Positions 2,916 through 52,325 of a stretch of DNA of 64,000 nucleotides are shown piece after piece (position 1 is the first letter of the stretch; each line of letters starts with the position of its first letter). The DNA lies in contig DATBHW010000047.1 in the NCBI GenBank assembly GCA_036557285.1, positions 37,001 through 101,000 of the forward strand, in the 5' to 3' direction. Made by a program: the position numbers and the translations under genes. This DNA is from Ktedonobacterales bacterium. Its GTDB lineage: Bacteria; Chloroflexota; Ktedonobacteria; Ktedonobacterales; DATBGS01. The notes under the pieces are model-generated. The model saw only the letters and a list, made by a program, of their open reading frames with translations. It was not told the DNA's origin and searched no databases.

Positions 2916-5414
2916 TCAACGTCCAGATTTTGGCGTCCGCGCGGGCAGCAGAGGACGCCGAATAAGGCTCGGAATGCTGGGAACATCTACATCGTCGGGA
3001 AGATTCCTGGCCTCTTCGGCGGCGCGCGCGCTCTCTTCGCCCGCCTGAATACATTGCTGCGCCAGTTCCAGCAAGCCGTTGGCAATCTCTTCCGCGCGGG
3101 ATGCGGCCATGCCCAGCCGACGCGCCACGCGCTCGTGCGCCTGACCATCCAGCGGGCCTGACGATAGGTTCCCCGTTCCCGCCCTGGTTGCATCCGCCGA
3201 TGCAGGCGCGGCGGCAGGCATCCTGGGCGTCGTATCGCCCGCGCGCAGCCCCGCGAGCCGCTCCAGCATCTGCAAGGCGCTCAGCCCCGTCTTCTGCTCC
3301 GCCGCTGGCTGAGGCGCAGCGGGCGGCTGGGGCGCAGCCGAAGCGGGCGCCTGGCCCGCGCCCTGGATTTCTGGCAGAGCAGCCGTCTCCTGAATGGTGC
3401 GCGCCAGGCGCTGAGCAACCTCAGCCGCCGTCTGGATCGTCGCCGCCGCTGTGTGCAGCCGCTCAGCCTGCCTGGTAAACTGGCTGATCAGCAGATCGCT
3501 GTGCTGGCGCACCTGGGCTAGCTGGGCCGGATCGGCCCTGGGCGCGCTGCGCAGCCGTTCCTCCAGCCCCTCGCGCTCGGCCTGCAAACGCTGCTCGTGC
3601 ATCTGGCGCTCGGTGAGCAACCGCTGTTCGACGGTATGCAGCGCAGCCTCAGCCGCCGCCACACGCGCCTCAGCGGCTTGCGCCTGCTCCTGCAATCGCT
3701 GGCGTTCGCGCTTCCATTGTTCCTCAGTCGCCTGCGCCACCTGGCGCTCCGAGTGCAGGTGCCCTTCCAGCGTCTGCGTCATCTCCTGCGCGGCCTGGCG
3801 CTGCAACTGCGCCTCTTGCTCCAGTTCCTGGCGGGCAGCCTCCAACTGCTGCTGCGCCTGGTAATGTTCTTCCTCATATTGTTGGACCGTCATTTGCAAA
3901 CCGATCAGCCGCGTGCGCACCTGCACGACGCTCATCATCAGCCCATCCAACGGAGAGCCGCCGGGCGTGGGCAGTTCCGGCAAATCGTGCATTTCGCCCA
4001 GCGCCAATCGCCCCAGCGCATCCGTCAAAACGCGAATCAGGCGCGTCTCGCGGCCACGATCACGGTCATTGAGTTGACGGTCCATTCCCTCCAGTAAGCC
4101 GTTCAGGCGATCAGCCAGCGGCGTCAGTTCGCGGTCCAAAGCGCCTACCCGCGCTTGATAGTCGCCGTAGCCAAAGCGCGCCAGCGTCTCCATCACGTAG
4201 TTCAGACTCTCCTGGCGCGCGCGCGCCTGAATAAGCTGACTGGAGCGCAGCTGATCGACTCGCTCCTCTGCCAGCGCCACATCGCGCTCCAGCGCGCGGC
4301 GCTGCTCTGCCACCTGGCGCGACTCAAAGAGGCTCACCAGATGGCGCGCGCCAATCAGCGCCACCAGCAGGCTGGCGCACACCAGCGCCACCAGCATCTC
4401 TGTGGGGCTGCTGGCCCTGGTCAGCGCGTGCGCCAGAATAACGCCCACCACCACAACGGTCAGCGCAAAAGGCAAGGCCATCCAGATGCCAGAGCCTTCC
4501 TCATCGAGCGCAGACTCCTCTTCATCGGCTGACTTGCGGCCCCCGCCGCGCAGACGCAGCAGCGCGCCCAGGCCAACAGCCAGGTAGCCAGCGTTCCAGA
4601 CAGCCTGAAGGGGCGAGTTGGAAGGCGCGAGTTGACCAGGCGTCTGGACTATGCTGACAAAATCAGCGCCGACCAGCAGCAGCATCGCCAGCCCCAGGAT
4701 ACCCAGCGCGCTAGAGAGGGGGCTGTGTCCCGCGCCCACCGAGCGCAGGGCAAAGGTCAGCCCGCCCAGCAGGAGCAGGTCACTGACACAGATAGCCAGC
4801 GTCGTCAACTGCCCGGCGCTCAGCGGGCCATCCGTCACCAGAGCGAGCGGAACCAGCACAAAGTAGATTACCGCCGCCATCCCCGTGCCAACCACCAGCA
4901 GGCCATCGAAGAACCGCCCCAGCCGCGTCAGCGCCTTCGTACCCTGCGTGGGCGGGGGAAAGAGCAGAAATGCCAGGAAAAATCCGATGCTCTGGACGAT
5001 CAGCGCCAGGCTCGCCACCGAAGGATAGCTTCCCGCCAGGCTTACGGGGAGATTGGTATTGGATGAAGCCGGAACAAAGCGGGTTCCTTGCGCCACCAGC
5101 ACCCCCAGGCAGGCCAGGCCCAGCAGCACCCACGCGCCGCGCTCACGCCCCTGCAACGCCACGCTGACCAGTAAGCAGCTTCCCAGCGCAAAAAGCCCGC
5201 TAATCATGGGAACGCCTAGCTCCACCAGCCCTAAATGCGTGCCGCTGGAGAGCGCCAGGGCCAGCGCCAGAAAGCCTTCGGCCACCACAGCGAGCAGCAC
5301 GCCTCCGGCCAGGGGCAGCCGACTGGCCGGAGAGGATACAGCGGAGGGCCGCGCATCATCGGGCGGTTCCCCTGTCTCAGCGAACATATCTGATCTACCA
5401 GGAAAAATAGACAT
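2916..5414 (-). CDS. Large polytopic membrane protein with HAMP-like segment and long Q/E/A-rich coiled coil
   Basis: 832 aa. About 8-10 hydrophobic helices at the N-terminus, then GDYQARVGALDRELTPLADRLNGLLEGM (HAMP-like), then about 300 aa of heptad-like Q/E/R/A sequence. No catalytic motif recognised. Confidence 0.7.
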   Translation of the reverse strand: MSIFPGRSDMFAETGEPPDDARPSAVSSPASRLPLAGGVLLAVVAEGFLALALALSSGTHLGLVELGVPMISGLFALGSCLLVSVALQGRERGAWVLLGLACLGVLVAQGTRFVPASSNTNLPVSLAGSYPSVASLALIVQSIGFFLAFLLFPPPTQGTKALTRLGRFFDGLLVVGTGMAAVIYFVLVPLALVTDGPLSAGQLTTLAICVSDLLLLGGLTFALRSVGAGHSPLSSALGILGLAMLLLVGADFVSIVQTPGQLAPSNSPLQAVWNAGYLAVGLGALLRLRGGGRKSADEEESALDEEGSGIWMALPFALTVVVVGVILAHALTRASSPTEMLVALVCASLLVALIGARHLVSLFESRQVAEQRRALERDVALAEERVDQLRSSQLIQARARQESLNYVMETLARFGYGDYQARVGALDRELTPLADRLNGLLEGMDRQLNDRDRGRETRLIRVLTDALGRLALGEMHDLPELPTPGGSPLDGLMMSVVQVRTRLIGLQMTVQQYEEEHYQAQQQLEAARQELEQEAQLQRQAAQEMTQTLEGHLHSERQVAQATEEQWKRERQRLQEQAQAAEARVAAAEAALHTVEQRLLTERQMHEQRLQAEREGLEERLRSAPRADPAQLAQVRQHSDLLISQFTRQAERLHTAAATIQTAAEVAQRLARTIQETAALPEIQGAGQAPASAAPQPPAAPQPAAEQKTGLSALQMLERLAGLRAGDTTPRMPAAAPASADATRAGTGNLSSGPLDGQAHERVARRLGMAASRAEEIANGLLELAQQCIQAGEESARAAEEARNLPDDVDVPSIPSLIRRPLLPARTPKSGR

Positions 5415-37486: not shown

Positions 37487-37665
37487 AGTTCCACCCCCTA
37501 TCGGGGGTTGCCACTTGTAGCGCCGCCATCTTGGCGGCTCAACGCTGGCCTGCCGGTCCGTTGGCCTGGTGGGCGAACGCTCGCCCTGGCGCAGCGTTGG
37601 CCGCCTGGAAGGCGGCGCTACAAGTACCATGCCTCGCTTGCCAACACCTCATGTTTGCTAGAACC
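37487..37665. mobile_element. Family-A MITE-like element with perfect 9-bp flanking direct repeat
   Basis: Termini AGTTCCACCCCCTATCGGGGG... and ...CCAACACCTCATGTTTGCTAGAACC. AACGCTCAG is present at 37478-37486 and at 37666-37674. Confidence 0.85.
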
Positions 37666-37670
37666 AACGC

Positions 37671-38054
37671 TCAGGTCAGGGCTTCTCCTTCTGAGCAGGG
37701 ATGCAGGCGGTCTTTCAGACGCTGACAGATACGTCGTATGAAGCGCGGCTTGATGGCTCTGCTGGACAACGGGCGGGGAGGTATGTGGCTCACCTGGGAA
37801 CCTGTAGCGGGCTGAAACAACCAGGCTTCAGGCATCAAGGTTTTCACCAGGCCATGCTTGACGAGAAAGCACAGCACGCTGCGTATCTCAGGGTGGGTAT
37901 ACAGGGTCGCATCGGCCAGGTCGGCAATCGTGACCGTCCCGTCACAGCGATACAGCACATGTTGCTGCAAGAGCGAGAGGGGGCGCACATGGTACTTCGC
38001 ACAGGGCGTGCGCTGATAGCGCAAAGTGACATCAAACGTGACAGCGGTCTGCAT
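37671..38054 (-). CDS. Small winged-helix-like protein, module copy A (partner of the XRE gene)
   Basis: The N-terminal ~75 aa are highly similar to 50812..51177 (TLRYQRTP.A.YHVRPLSLLQQ..LYRCDG.VTIADL.DAT.YTHPEIR). Start at the ATG 8 nt after the conserved AAAGGAG. Confidence 0.7.
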   Translation of the reverse strand: MQTAVTFDVTLRYQRTPCAKYHVRPLSLLQQHVLYRCDGTVTIADLADATLYTHPEIRSVLCFLVKHGLVKTLMPEAWLFQPATGSQVSHIPPRPLSSRAIKPRFIRRICQRLKDRLHPCSEGEALT

Positions 38055-38083
38055 AGACATGGCTCCTTTCATCACTTGCCATG

Positions 38084-38124
38084 CCCACGCGCCAGCGAGT
38101 ACAATAGCCTTACCGGCGCGTGGG
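38084..38124. promoter_or_regulatory. Conserved 10-bp inverted repeat / stem-loop in the XRE-wHTH spacer (copy A), with embedded plus-strand TTGCCA-18-TACAAT
   Basis: CCCACGCGCC (38084-38093) pairs with GGCGCGTGGG (38115-38124). TTGCCA at 38076-38081 and TACAAT at 38100-38105, antisense to the module genes. Confidence 0.6.
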
Positions 38125-38173
38125 TTCTTAATGGGGGCTTGCGAGTTGGTACTGCTGCCGTTGTAGGAATTGA

Positions 38174-38401
38174 CTACGCGGCAGCCCGTTCTTTTTCTTC
38201 CTCTGCCGTTGCTTTGATAGCCGCTATAATTTCTTCTGGCTCCTTCTTGTAGATTTCAACGAGCTTACGACGGTACACTGGGCGTGGCCGGGCATGCGCA
38301 TGTTCCCAATCTGATACTGTTTGTCGGCTCACCTGAAGCATAGCTGCCAATTCTTGTTGTGACAGCAGAGCTGCTTCTCGTAAATCTCTCAATGTCGGCA
38401 T
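38174..38401 (-). CDS. XRE-family helix-turn-helix transcriptional regulator, module copy A
   Basis: 75 aa. MPTLRDLREAALLSQQELAAMLQVSRQTVSDWE is a classic HTH_3/XRE pattern. Paralog at 50451..50684. Confidence 0.85.
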   Translation of the reverse strand: MPTLRDLREAALLSQQELAAMLQVSRQTVSDWEHAHARPRPVYRRKLVEIYKKEPEEIIAAIKATAEEEKERAAA

Positions 38402-38488: not shown

Positions 38489-38662
38489 GGTCCACCAATG
38501 ATCGGGGGTCACTTGTAGCGCCGCCATCTTGGCGGCCAACGCTGCGCCTTGGCGAGCGTTCGCCCTCCAGGCCAGCGGACCAGCAGGCCAACGCTGGCCG
38601 CCTGGAAGGCGGCGCTACAAGTAACAGGTCTCGCTTGCTAACACCTCATGTTTGGTGGAACC
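38489..38662. repeat. Family-A element (GGTCCACCAATGATCGGGGG ... TTTGGTGGAACC termini)
   Basis: Both terminus types are present. No flanking duplication was found. The right side abuts another repeat fragment (ATCCTGTTGAATGCCCACAGTTTCGGCTTGTACCGCC). Confidence 0.8.
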
Positions 38663-38721
38663 CACATCCTGTTGAATGCCCACAGTTTCGGCTTGTACCG
38701 CCTGCGGGGTGGGGCGACTTT

Positions 38722-38935
38722 TGCATAGCTCTGCATGGCTCCTTTCATCACTTGCCATGCCCACGCGCCAGCGAGTACAATAGCCTTACCGGCGCGTGGG
38801 TTCTTAACGGGGTTCACGGGTTGGTGTTTCTGAGTCCGCCGTCCTAGTGAGCATCTAGGCGGCGGGCCGTTCTATTTCTGTACTCCTTTCTTTTGTCTCC
38901 TTGATAGCCGCGAGAAGTTCATCTTGCTATAGTGC
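38722..38935 (-). pseudogene. Decayed third copy of the XRE-wHTH module
   Basis: Keeps the wHTH start region and RBS, the full inverted repeat (38760-38769 / 38791-38800) with TTGCCA-18-TACAAT, and only the last ~20 codons of an XRE gene (...ELLAAIKETKERSTEIERPAA*). Both coding bodies are replaced by repeat DNA. Confidence 0.65.
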
Positions 38936-41490: not shown

Positions 41491-43092
41491 TCATACCCCC
41501 GCCTCTTCTGGTGGTTCGGTATGAATCAAGACCGCGCCAAGGGGCGGCAGTTCTGCCCGCAGCGCCCGCTCAATCTCTTCCGCCTGCACATGCACCTGCT
41601 GAATGGGCGCGGCCCCCGAAAAAGTGCAGTGCAGCACCAGATCATAGAGCGGCGCTTCCGGCGTCGGCGGCTGCTCCTCCGCGTGATTCATCACCCGATA
41701 GACATGGACCTCGTGGCAGCTTCCCCGTCCGGCCACCTCATCGGCAATCCGGCGCACCCGCGACACCAGGGCTGGCTGCTCCGCCGAAACATCGCGCCGA
41801 TGCTCCACACTCACATCTGGCGCTTCCAGGTGCGTCGTCACGCGGCGCACCGCCGGATACGCCCGATAGATCGCGCGCTCCAGACGAGTTGCCGCATCAT
41901 GCGCCGCCCGCAGGTCCAGATCGGGGTCCACCTCCAGATGCAAATCCGCTTCCAGCGCGTCAGTCCCACGCTCTTCTTCCAGAACGCGCACGCGCACATC
42001 ATGCGCCCGCAAGTCCAACTCCAGCGCCAGATAGTGAATACCCTGGGCCGTCGTTTCCGCCGCCGTTTCCGCCGGTTCCACATGCACCACCACATCCACA
42101 TCCGCCTGGGGCGCATCGGCGCACACAGCCTCGCGCGCCGCGCGCTCCACCGCCTCCGTTACCGCGTGGGCATGCTCGAACGTCGCTGTGCGCGGCGCGC
42201 CCACGACCAGATCGGCAAAAAGCTTGTTGCCTGCCCGGCGCGTTCGCACCCGCCGCACATCCACCACGCCTTCTACGCCCTGCGCGGCGTGTTCCAGCGC
42301 CGAAGGGAGCGTATCTGGCGCTCGGTCCAGCAGGGCATCCAGCGTCTGGCGCACCAGCCGAAAGCTGACCCAGATCACAATCAGCGAAACGCCCAGCGCC
42401 GCCACCGCGTCGGCCTGTCCCAGCCAGGGCACAGCAACCGCCTGACCGATGCGCACCGCCACCAGCCCTAGAATCACCACCACCGAACTCCAGATGTCGG
42501 TGCGAAAATGCAGCGCGTCAGCCTCCAGCGCCTGGCTTCCCTGCTCCTTTGCCACGCGCATCAGCGCCCGCGAGCGCGTAGCGTCCACCGCAATGGAAAC
42601 GGCCATCACCAGAAACGTCCAGATACTGGGGTCCACCTGACCTTCATGCAAGAGCAAACGCCGCAGCGCCTCATAGATGATCCAGCCCGCCGTCAGCAGC
42701 AGCAGCCCGGCCTCCAGAAACGCCGAAAGGTTCTCGAACTTGCCATGCCCATAGTTATGCGTCTCATCTGGCGGGCGATCCGCCACGCGCACCGCCACCA
42801 GCGTCATCAGCGCGGCCACCAGATCAAGCCCCGAATGCGCCGCCTCGGCCAGAACGCCCAGGCTGCCGCTGAGCAGGCCCACAATCAGCTTCAGGCTGGT
42901 CAGCCCGACAGCCGCCAGCACCGACGAAAAGGCCACCAGCCGCTTCTCTTGCGCCCCCGTTCGACCAGTTCGGCCTGCTGCTCTGGCGCTGGCGGAGCTT
43001 GCGGCCCCTGGCGTCCAGTTCCGACGCCGTTTTGAGTTTTCAGAAGGGTCAGTCGCTGGCGTCCTCTGCCTCGCTGGCGGGGCAGATGGCAT
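41491..43092 (-). CDS. Cation diffusion facilitator (CDF) family transporter with extended C-terminus
   Basis: 533 aa. SLKLIVGLLSGSLGVLAEAAHSGLDL, HNYGHGKFE, and ADALHFRTD motifs. AAGGAGG RBS. About 200 aa lie beyond a normal CDF length. Confidence 0.85.
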   Translation of the reverse strand: MPSAPPARQRTPATDPSENSKRRRNWTPGAASSASARAAGRTGRTGAQEKRLVAFSSVLAAVGLTSLKLIVGLLSGSLGVLAEAAHSGLDLVAALMTLVAVRVADRPPDETHNYGHGKFENLSAFLEAGLLLLTAGWIIYEALRRLLLHEGQVDPSIWTFLVMAVSIAVDATRSRALMRVAKEQGSQALEADALHFRTDIWSSVVVILGLVAVRIGQAVAVPWLGQADAVAALGVSLIVIWVSFRLVRQTLDALLDRAPDTLPSALEHAAQGVEGVVDVRRVRTRRAGNKLFADLVVGAPRTATFEHAHAVTEAVERAAREAVCADAPQADVDVVVHVEPAETAAETTAQGIHYLALELDLRAHDVRVRVLEEERGTDALEADLHLEVDPDLDLRAAHDAATRLERAIYRAYPAVRRVTTHLEAPDVSVEHRRDVSAEQPALVSRVRRIADEVAGRGSCHEVHVYRVMNHAEEQPPTPEAPLYDLVLHCTFSGAAPIQQVHVQAEEIERALRAELPPLGAVLIHTEPPEEAGV

Positions 43093-50134: not shown

Positions 50135-50376
50135 GGTTCTACCAAATCTGAGGTGTTGGCAAGCGAGGAGTGTTACTTGTAGCGCCGCCGTCCCTGGCGG
50201 CCACTTGTAGCGCCGCCATCTTGGCGGCCAGCGTTAGCCCGCCGGAACGCTGGCCCCAAGGGCGAACGCTCGCCCTGGCGCAGCGGTGGGCCGCCTGGAA
50301 GGCGGCGCTACAAGTGGGCGCTCGCCAGGGCGCAGCGGTGGCCGCCTGGAAGGCGGCGCTACAAGTGGCCCCGAAC
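50135..50376. repeat. Family-A repeat cluster
   Basis: Left terminus GGTTCTACCAAATCTGAGGTGTTGGCAAGCGAGGAGTGTTAC. The right end is truncated (…CTACAAGTGGCCCCGAAC). The flanks share only AACTTA. Confidence 0.8.
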
Positions 50377-50380
50377 TTAT

Positions 50381-50415
50381 AGATACTTGACGAAGTATCT
50401 GGTGAATGTTATAAT
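50381..50415 (+). promoter_or_regulatory. Promoter of XRE copy B (TTGACG-17 nt-TATAAT) with overlapping palindromic operator
   Basis: TTGACG at 50387-50392 and TATAAT at 50410-50415. Perfect palindrome AGATACTT-GACG-AAGTATCT at 50381-50400 spans the -35. Confidence 0.65.
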
Positions 50416-50450
50416 CTCTCGTAGAATCATCCTAGCGAGGAGCCTTTCCG

Positions 50451-50684
50451 ATGCCCACCTTACGAGACTTGCGTGAAGAAGCGTTTATGACGCAAGTAGA
50501 CCTTGCGAAAGCGTGCGGCGTAAGCAGTGCCAGCATTAGCGACTGGGAAAATGCGAAGTCTGCCCCGTCCATGAAAAATCGTCGCAAGCTCATGGAGGCG
50601 CTGGGGAAGACGCCGCACGAGATTATGGAGGCAATCCGTGAAACCCAGAGAAAGGGGAGCCAAAGAGAAAGGCCCGCCGCCTAA
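50451..50684 (+). CDS. XRE-family helix-turn-helix transcriptional regulator, module copy B
   Basis: 77 aa. MPTLRDLREEAFMTQVDLAKACGVSSASISDWE. Shares its N-terminus and the C-terminal ...ERPAA* with copy A and the remnant. Confidence 0.85.
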   Translation: MPTLRDLREEAFMTQVDLAKACGVSSASISDWENAKSAPSMKNRRKLMEALGKTPHEIMEAIRETQRKGSQRERPAA

Positions 50685-50741
50685 CTGAATCTTAGACGGC
50701 AGGCAAAAGTACCAGCCCGTAGGAAACCCGTTGAAAGGAAC

Positions 50742-50782
50742 CCCATACGCCGGTAGGACCATTGTACTCGCTGGCGTATGGG
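50742..50782. promoter_or_regulatory. Conserved inverted repeat / stem-loop in the XRE-wHTH spacer (copy B), with embedded minus-strand TTGCCA-18-TACAAT
   Basis: CCCATACGCC (50742-50751) pairs with GGCGTATGGG (50773-50782). Two base pairs differ from copy A in a compensatory way. Minus-strand TTGCCA (plus 50785-50790) and TACAAT (plus 50761-50766). Confidence 0.6.
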
Positions 50783-50811
50783 CATGGCAAGTCACGAAAG
50801 GAGCCATGCTC

Positions 50812-51177
50812 ATGTCGTCAACCACGCCCTTTGATGGCAGCCTCTTCGATTTCACCCTGCGCTATCAGCGCACCCCTGGCGCGCAATATCATGTACGCCC
50901 CCTCTCGCTCTTGCAGCAAGAAATGCTTTATCGCTGTGATGGGCGCGTCACCATCGCCGATTTGTCCGACGCGACGAAATACACCCACCCAGAAATCCGT
51001 AATATCCTCAGCTTTCTCAGCGCACACGGCCTCGTGCAAACCATCTTTGTGAAGCAGGATGCTTCACTCAAACCGGAAGCCTGGCTGTTCAAGCCGCCTG
51101 CTCAGCAGCAGATCGGTAACACGCCAACGCAGCCTCTCCCCCAACAACAGCCGCCTGCTCGCATCCGCGCTTCCTGA
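50812..51177 (+). CDS. Small winged-helix-like protein, module copy B
   Basis: MSSTTPFDGSLFDFTLRYQRTPGAQYHVRPLSLLQQEMLYRCDGRVTIADLSDATKYTHPEIRNILSFLSAHGLVQT. The C-terminus is Q/P-rich and unrelated to copy A. Conserved AAAGGAG RBS. Confidence 0.7.
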   Translation: MSSTTPFDGSLFDFTLRYQRTPGAQYHVRPLSLLQQEMLYRCDGRVTIADLSDATKYTHPEIRNILSFLSAHGLVQTIFVKQDASLKPEAWLFKPPAQQQIGNTPTQPLPQQQPPARIRAS

Positions 51178-52169: not shown

Positions 52170-52325
52170 GCGCAACACCACTTGCCGCACCGCCTTCCTG
52201 GCGGCCACTTGTAGCGCCGCCATCCTGGCGGCTCAACGTTGGCCCGCCGGGACGCTGGCCTGGAGGGCGAACGCTCGCCAGGGCGCAGCGTTGGCCGCCA
52301 GGATGGCGGCGCTACAGGTGGGGTT
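52170..52325. repeat. Family-A repeat filling the gap between two convergent genes
   Basis: CCACTTGCCGCACCGCCTTCCTGGCGGCCACTTGTAGCGCCGCCATCCTGGCGGC ... GCCGCCAGGATGGCGGCGCTACAGGTGG. Confidence 0.85.

Follow-up and report, generated by a model that had tools for sequence, protein, structure and literature searches.

In the present study, the spacer between the two regulator genes of a Ktedonobacterales module was found to carry what is very probably the gene of a structured antisense RNA. Taken together, the comparative data point to a cis-encoded antisense sRNA which, with a structural switch in the mRNA, probably controls translation of the downstream winged-helix-like gene. The 10-bp inverted repeat in the same spacer would then be the mRNA hairpin of this antisense-controlled translational switch, a role that is suggested by the folding models and that we hold with modest confidence. 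The preliminary description of this DNA had left two readings of the repeat side by side, an RNA stem-loop just upstream of the ribosome-binding site (RBS) of the wHTH gene, and an operator flanking an antisense promoter whose transcript would run back into the XRE gene. According to the models, these may be two faces of one device, linked by the fact that the 5' arm of the repeat would be the target of the 5' end of the antisense RNA. Three elements were added here to the earlier picture, namely the terminator that spans the stop codon of the XRE gene, the stem-loop at the 5' end of the sRNA and the targeting of the 5' arm.

Results

The window, i.e. the whole stretch of 64,000 nucleotides analysed here, contains two complete XRE-wHTH modules (copies A and B) and one remnant (Table 1). 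A module consists of an XRE/HTH_3 gene of 75-77 aa, a spacer of about 125 nt and then an orphan gene of about 120 aa. Between copies A and B, identity is about 95% in the 3' half of the spacer but only about 50% (XRE) and about 65% (downstream) in the proteins, and therefore selection acts on the nucleotides. In the remnant, both reading frames are lost and there is no protein match, while the antisense promoter and the whole sRNA are kept; positions 38734-38807 of the remnant are identical to 38058-38131 of copy A over 74 nt. The downstream protein gave no domain in Pfam, where winged-helix matches were sub-threshold only, no matches in PHROGs, a best hit of only E = 0.027 in PADLOC and E > 0.7 in a profile search of the PDB, and its AlphaFold2 model was poor (pLDDT 58.6). 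The XRE promoters and the palindromes at them differ in sequence between paralogues. In copy B, a perfect 8-bp palindrome, AGATACTT-GACG-AAGTATCT (50381-50400), overlaps the -35 element of the XRE promoter and is likely to be an autoregulatory operator.

A palindromic REP/MITE-like intergenic repeat of about 110 bp, with the termini CTTGTAGCGCCGCC...GGCGGCGCTACAAG, flanks the modules and is also present at the related loci L001, L002, L010 and L013. The repeat is genome-wide, and its terminus motif occurs 54 times per 64 kb against 0.07 expected. A tie between these repeats and the module was rejected, as the 54 occurrences lie across the window.

Table 1. Coordinates of the module features and of the intergenic repeat in the window
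Feature	Position	Strand	Details
Copy B, sense promoter of the module	50387..50415	+	TTGACG-17-TATAAT; 11/12 matches (promoter scan)
Copy B, XRE (HTH_3) gene	50451..50684	+	stop codon 50682-50684
Copy B, predicted antisense sRNA, ~93 nt	50662..50754	-	covariance-model match 50658-50754, 63.9 bits
Copy B, inverted repeat (H1)	50742..50782	+	arms 50742-50751 and 50773-50782, gap 21 nt
Copy B, antisense promoter	50761..50790	-	-35 TTGCCA 50790-50785, 18 nt, -10 TACAAT 50766-50761
Copy B, predicted alternative extended hairpin	50773..50819	+	c + H2 5' arm pairs GCCAUG + CUCAUGUCGUC, burying the start codon
Copy B, hairpin H2	50783..50808	+	CAUGGC-N14-GCCAUG, 6 bp, directly after H1
Copy B, downstream orphan gene, 121 aa	50812..51177	+	start codon 50812-50814; winged-helix matches sub-threshold
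Copy A, downstream wHTH-like gene	37671..38054	-	
Copy A, antisense promoter	38076..38105	+	TTGCCA-18-TACAAT (promoter scan)
Copy A, inverted repeat (H1)	38084..38124	-	arms 38084-38093 and 38115-38124, perfect 10 bp, gap 21 nt
Copy A, predicted antisense sRNA, 89 nt	38112..38200	+	covariance-model match, 78.7 bits
Copy A, XRE gene	38174..38401	-	
Remnant of module	about 38640-38900		XRE mostly gone, wHTH gene gone
Remnant, antisense promoter	38752-38781	+	intact (promoter scan)
Remnant, inverted repeat	38760..38800	-	arms 38760-38769 and 38791-38800; sequence as copy A
Remnant, predicted antisense sRNA, complete	38788-38881	+	covariance-model match, 77.6 bits; whole unit 38752..38881
REP/MITE-like repeat	50176-50365, 37514-37624, 38512-38621, 52208-52318		about 20 further sites

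For the comparison, 23 loci were collected. They yielded 18 different spacers, all from loci of Ktedonobacterales type and with those of the three window copies among them (alignment A3). Scans of genomes and metagenomes with the downstream protein contributed one and six loci, respectively, and most of the homologous DNA came from exact-protein look-ups, 2 of 12 of which found nothing. The family of the downstream protein comprises about 50 clusters, and every named source is a metagenome-assembled genome of the Ktedonobacterales. At least six paralogues of this protein are encoded in the genome of the window (VH599_14485, _14420, _14200, _15100, _01375 and _17420). Among the collected loci, the modules lie in unrelated chromosomal contexts with nothing to suggest a phage or plasmid. 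Copy B is syntenic with L009, both being located between an aminotransferase gene and MurT/GatD-like genes.

The inverted repeat had been described as a perfect 10-bp repeat in all three copies, and this was confirmed. In copy B the arms CCCATACGCC/GGCGTATGGG (also read as CCCAUACGCC/GGCGUAUGGG) are 100% complementary over 10 bp, and in copy A they read CCCACGCGCC/GGCGCGTGGG (also CCCACGCGCC/GGCGCGUGGG). The exchange of two adjacent pairs that had been called compensatory was also found, with CG/CG against TA/TA on the two sides (C-G/G-C against U-A/A-U). The alignment of further copies, which had been proposed as a check for covariation, was run on the 18 distinct spacers; standard pairs are formed in 98.3% of the repeat cells, double changes are seen at two pairs, U·G intermediates are present in the arms of L009, L015 and L005, and the pairing is broken by an A·C mismatch in one homologue (L001/L002). 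The L009 repeat is the intermediate expected on the way from C-G through U·G to U-A. Since every TA-type repeat has one common loop type, the double change may represent one or a few events. The arm sequences are near-invariant beyond what pairing alone requires, and a bound protein could contribute to this. Arm-like 10-mers are found seven times in the window (the six arms and one at 5129-5138) against a chance expectation of 2.1, and 3 of 100 shuffles reach seven. The lone CCCACGCGCC at 5129-5138 stands without an inverted partner and away from any module, and is probably there by chance.

On the strand opposite the genes, the preliminary description had pointed to a TTGCCA-18-TACAAT motif with its -10 element between the arms. 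A promoter scan found this motif independently in 3/3 copies of the window as a consensus match (10 of 12 positions), and promoter-like sites numbered 3 per region against 0.3-0.7 expected from shuffles. The -10 element thus sits in the loop of H1, and the 3' arm of the repeat is placed within the promoter spacer. In all 18 spacers the -35 element is invariant, and so are the bases from A-11 to T-7 of the -10 element. The distance between the two elements is 18 nt in 17 spacers and 17 nt in L004. The -10 element reads TACAAT in 13 spacers and GACAAT in five, and an extended -10 element (TGn, with TGC directly upstream) accompanies 5/5 of the GACAAT variants and 0/13 of the TACAAT ones. The predicted +1, which is 7 nt downstream of the -10 element, is A in 16 cases and G in 2 and coincides with the first base of the 5' stem. 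The starts so predicted are 38112 (plus strand) and about 50754 (minus strand), in agreement with those guessed earlier at 38112 (+) and 50755 (-).

Folding of the sRNA, taken from the predicted +1 purine to the U-run, gave the same two-hairpin prediction in all 18 sequences, namely a stem-loop at the 5' end, a short linker (ACUUUU) and a terminator. The consensus of the 5' stem-loop is ACCGGC-G-YRUGGG ... CCYRYG-G-GCUGGU. In copy B, the segment termed b is the 5' arm of the repeat (50742-50751) plus GGT to 50754, and segment c is the 3' arm (50773-50782). In the 5' stem-loop of the copy B sRNA (50754-50711), the complement of segment b pairs with the complement of segment a (50711-50723), and it is followed by the ACUUUU linker, the terminator hairpin at 50704-50672 and the U-run at 50671-50662. 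In the copy A sRNA, the 5' stem-loop is followed by the terminator hairpin GCUGCCG...CGGCAGC and then by the tail CCGUUCUUUUUCUUC.

For copy B, a terminator scan reported a stem of 13 bp together with CTTTCTCTTT on the antisense strand. The hairpin of copy A narrowly fails the terminator rule of the scan, its T-run beginning 4 nt after the stem; a T-rich tail follows the hairpin in all homologues. This GC-rich hairpin spans the XRE stop codon (GCCGCCGCCUAG-N6/7-CUAGG-A-CGGCGGC) and is preceded by an A-run on the sense strand, and the antisense reading is therefore a hairpin and then a U-run. The predicted RNA covers the 3' end of the XRE gene, in line with the earlier idea of a transcript running back into it. 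Departures from standard pairing in the stop-codon hairpin comprise 19 antisense G·U (C·A in sense) against 0 sense G·U, and the hairpin is stabler on the antisense strand in 17/18 sequences, by a mean of 4.9 kcal/mol.

RNAalifold recovered the two-hairpin antisense fold. In this fold 96.7% of the cells are paired and 4 pairs have double changes, a value reached by 0/500 shuffles, while slid controls were 33-51% paired and the sense reading of the same helices about 77%. The basal stem is paired in 108/108 cells on the antisense strand against 80/108 on the sense strand. Over the whole RNA, 79 cells are G·U in the antisense reading against 2 in the sense reading, although the sequences are related (effective number 2.34 in the covariance model) and such cell counts overstate the independent events. 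This asymmetry is the strongest single argument in the alignment that the functional RNA would be the antisense one. On the strength of it, we rejected the idea that the stop-codon hairpin and the a:b helix belong to the sense strand, and likewise a purely sense-strand account of all the conservation.

The covariance model (R1) was run on the window and on the flanks of the loci, where it found no convincing copy beyond the known ones, with the strands as expected. Two weak matches, in L007 (13.6 bits) and at 42645-42727 of the window (12.5 bits), were dismissed. With Rfam 15, the whole window gave 0 matches at the gathering thresholds, and a sub-threshold search of 50380-50860 (E up to 10) returned best E-values of 0.19-8 with scores far below gathering. 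By its sequence, the predicted RNA has the marks of a cis-antisense sRNA, i.e. a promoter of its own on the opposite strand, a terminator as its 3' end and a structure specific to the antisense strand. The reading of the motif as an antisense promoter is strongly reinforced by the conserved, strand-specific and terminator-ended RNA structure predicted downstream of it. The remnant may be an orphan copy of the sRNA that acts in trans on copy A, 600 bp away.

The AAA or PAA terminus of the XRE proteins is due to their last codons (50670-50684 in the window), which form the GCCGCCGCC stem of the antisense terminator. Thus the conserved C-terminus is probably dictated by the RNA terminator of the other strand. 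In L022 the stem over the XRE stop is kept though the reading frame is shifted. In L006 the XRE stop is changed from TAG to TGG, with a compensatory change from CTA to CCA in the other arm.

As the start of the antisense RNA falls within the loop of the repeat, this RNA contains only the complement of the 5' arm; therefore, the complementarity of the repeat must matter in the sense mRNA or in the DNA. The 41-nt H1 element is stabler on the sense strand in 15/18 spacers and on the antisense strand in 0/18 (mean 4.2 kcal/mol), and the wobbles in its arms are three in sense (U·G; L009, L015 and L005) against one in antisense (A·C in sense; L001/L002). The 21-nt loop occurs in three sequence types which all extend the stem, types 1 and 3 by G·U pairs available only in sense, and type 2 by Watson-Crick pairs that extend the palindrome equally on both strands. 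One hybrid loop, that of L020, gives no stem extension. Loop pairing exceeds that of shuffled loops (mean z -1.8), and the six bases matching the -10 element remain at the apex of H1. These findings indicate, at a moderate level, that H1 acts as RNA. A role of H1 as a sense terminator or attenuator was rejected, since CAUGGCAAGU follows and there is no U-run; the terminator scan found no sense-strand terminator in the spacer.

Next to H1, the Shine-Dalgarno sequence AAAGGAG (50797-50803 in copy B) lies in the loop of H2, and the 5' arm of H2 overlaps the antisense -35 element. The 3' arm of H2 is kept where the AUG is out of frame (L015), is GUG (GTG; L022) or is displaced by an insertion (L002 and L021). 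When segment b was removed from the folding, arm c together with the 5' arm of H2 was predicted to pair with GCCAUG and the next 10-12 nt, over the start AUG, in the intact homologues. This pairing of arm c with the start region beats that of shuffled tails (mean z -2.1), the extended H2 being a thermodynamic prediction in which a G-rich arm pairs readily with C/U-rich sequence. In both variants of the arm (CG and TA), the partner of its YR dinucleotide is the UG of AUG. Over its first 13 nt, the antisense RNA has essentially the sequence of arm c, and when mRNA and antisense RNA were cofolded for copies A and B, the rearrangement from H1 to the extended H2 was predicted. Overall, the earlier reading of an RNA stem-loop upstream of the wHTH RBS is moderately supported by the stability on the sense strand, by the 3:1 sense excess of the wobbles and by this alternative pairing over the start codon.

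A decaying copy of the module in L007 (2385-2735) was left out of the alignment. Its XRE gene, segment a and terminator are gone and its -10 element reads TACATT, whereas H1 and H2 are intact; its downstream gene matches in two frames, which is a frameshift.

Discussion

In the mechanism that we propose, a sigma-70-type antisense promoter would produce an RNA of about 90 nt from the XRE-wHTH intercistronic spacer. By default, the sense mRNA would form H1 (b:c) just upstream of H2, which would show the Shine-Dalgarno sequence, and the start codon would be free. The first 13 nt of the sRNA would mimic arm c and so compete for arm b. On pairing of the antisense RNA with the spacer, arm c would be displaced, and the freed arm could then zip over the start-codon region of the wHTH gene as the extended H2 and block downstream translation. 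By analogy with known systems, RNase III may plausibly also cut the long duplex over the XRE 3' end. It is likewise plausible that strong sense transcription through the antisense promoter dampens the sRNA, and the sRNA would therefore act as a threshold filter on leaky expression of the module. Tentatively, this can be extended to a wider picture of multi-copy two-regulator modules, each with a private antisense RNA, in which arm c is an internal mimic competing for arm b and the loser decides whether the start codon is buried. In that picture, the variable sRNA loop and the CG/TA dinucleotide of the arms would insulate the paralogues from each other, and orphan sRNAs, the remnant among them, would work in trans on a module next to them.

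As the complementarity of the repeat could also serve in the DNA, we considered that the repeat is an operator, with the wHTH-like or the XRE protein (as a tetramer or two dimers) on both arms, flanking the antisense -10 element and start, and repressing or activating the sRNA. Such an operator is compatible with the antisense RNA gene and competes only with the role of the repeat as an mRNA hairpin. The arms are near-invariant in sequence and not merely complementary, the centre of symmetry falls on the -10 element, and two proteins of DNA-binding type are encoded alongside. In addition, the Watson-Crick pairs of the type-2 loops, which extend the palindrome equally on both strands, suit an operator, and symmetric double changes are also expected of a palindromic one. 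However, the centres of the two half-sites lie 31 bp apart, an unusual distance for HTH dimers, for which about one helical turn is expected, and no similar motif is found at the XRE promoters, which differ between paralogues. The asymmetric variants are mostly wobbles of the sense strand, loop types 1 and 3 extend the stem on that strand only, and for the downstream protein the winged-helix matches stay below threshold and the model is poor (pLDDT 58.6). We therefore regard an operator as rather unlikely, and an mRNA hairpin under antisense control as the preferred role of the repeat.

Intercistronic hairpins commonly serve as processing or stabilising elements, and H1 might be such a sense hairpin independent of the antisense RNA, i.e. 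an RNase III or RNase E site, a stabiliser that uncouples the cistrons, or a fixed holder of arm c that makes translation constitutive. H1 is stable and sense-favouring, and it lies directly 5' of the ribosome-binding hairpin. We consider this explanation improbable, since it leaves unexplained both the start of an sRNA whose first 13 nt match c and target b and the complementarity of the region after the start codon to arm c. It is very improbable that there is no antisense transcript, with the conservation due to sense mRNA structure or coding and the promoter and terminator motifs coincidental, for although the motif scans give consensus matches only and the K/E-rich C-terminus of XRE with its AAA end is also encoded by the A-rich tract and GCCGCCGCC, such a view is opposed by the G·U excess, pairing level and terminator stability on the antisense strand, by a helix that begins at the predicted +1, by the co-occurrence of the -10 variant with the TG extension, and by the remnant, which keeps the whole antisense unit with both frames gone.

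By analogy, the closest system in architecture would be GadY, with OOP and sar also close, and the closest in logic pT181/pIP501, a class that the element would resemble without belonging to it. GadY is cis-encoded and induces cleavage and stabilisation of the gadX mRNA (PMC5415839). As with GadY at gadX-gadW of Escherichia coli, the sRNA predicted here lies opposite the spacer of two co-transcribed regulator genes and is fully complementary to it. However, there is no sequence or Rfam relationship with GadY, the sRNA of the module extends over the stop codon and the final codons of the upstream gene as well, and it is predicted to act by refolding a hairpin so that the start codon of the downstream gene becomes buried. 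In P22, the promoter of sar is located between arc and ant, where it faces a strong sense promoter and is occluded by it. For lambda OOP, an overlap with the 3' end of cII and the triggering of RNase III cleavage have been reported, and for P22 sar RNA an inhibition of antirepressor synthesis (PMC5415839). OOP/cII and sar/arc-ant resemble the present case as short, terminator-ended antisense RNAs in small repressor modules. In contrast to both, the module described here is chromosomal, is present in several copies per genome without phage context and has no homology to them; unlike sar, the predicted RNA leaves the ribosome-binding site of the downstream gene uncovered.

Attenuation in pT181/pIP501 (RNAIII/repR) is a riboswitch-like induction of premature termination (PMC5415839). 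The logic that the models would have in common with it is that of mutually exclusive helices, in which the antisense RNA takes one strand of the pre-emptor (here b:c) and the freed strand is inhibitory. In contrast to these plasmids, the inhibitory helix modelled here has no U-run, is not a terminator and would bury the start codon, and the module does not belong to replication control. From the sequence comparison, the RNA would represent a new family within the cis-encoded antisense sRNAs that act with refolding of the mRNA.

Ktedonobacter are mycelial, spore-forming Chloroflexota with large genomes. Our literature search for antisense RNA in Ktedonobacter found nothing relevant, and the RNA described here would be a comparatively supported antisense sRNA family in this group, tied to a lineage-specific pair of regulators that is found at least six times in one genome. 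The codes that would overlap within 130 bp are the stop and C-terminal codons of the XRE gene, the terminator, the sRNA stem-loop, a promoter inside an mRNA hairpin and the ribosome-binding hairpin. Annotators should beware of reading the AAA/PAA C-terminus of the XRE proteins as driven by the protein. In one subfamily (L001, L013-L015 and L021), the module is always followed by genes for a DtxR-type iron/manganese repressor and an Nramp transporter, which hints at a stable chromosomal association of this one paralogue.
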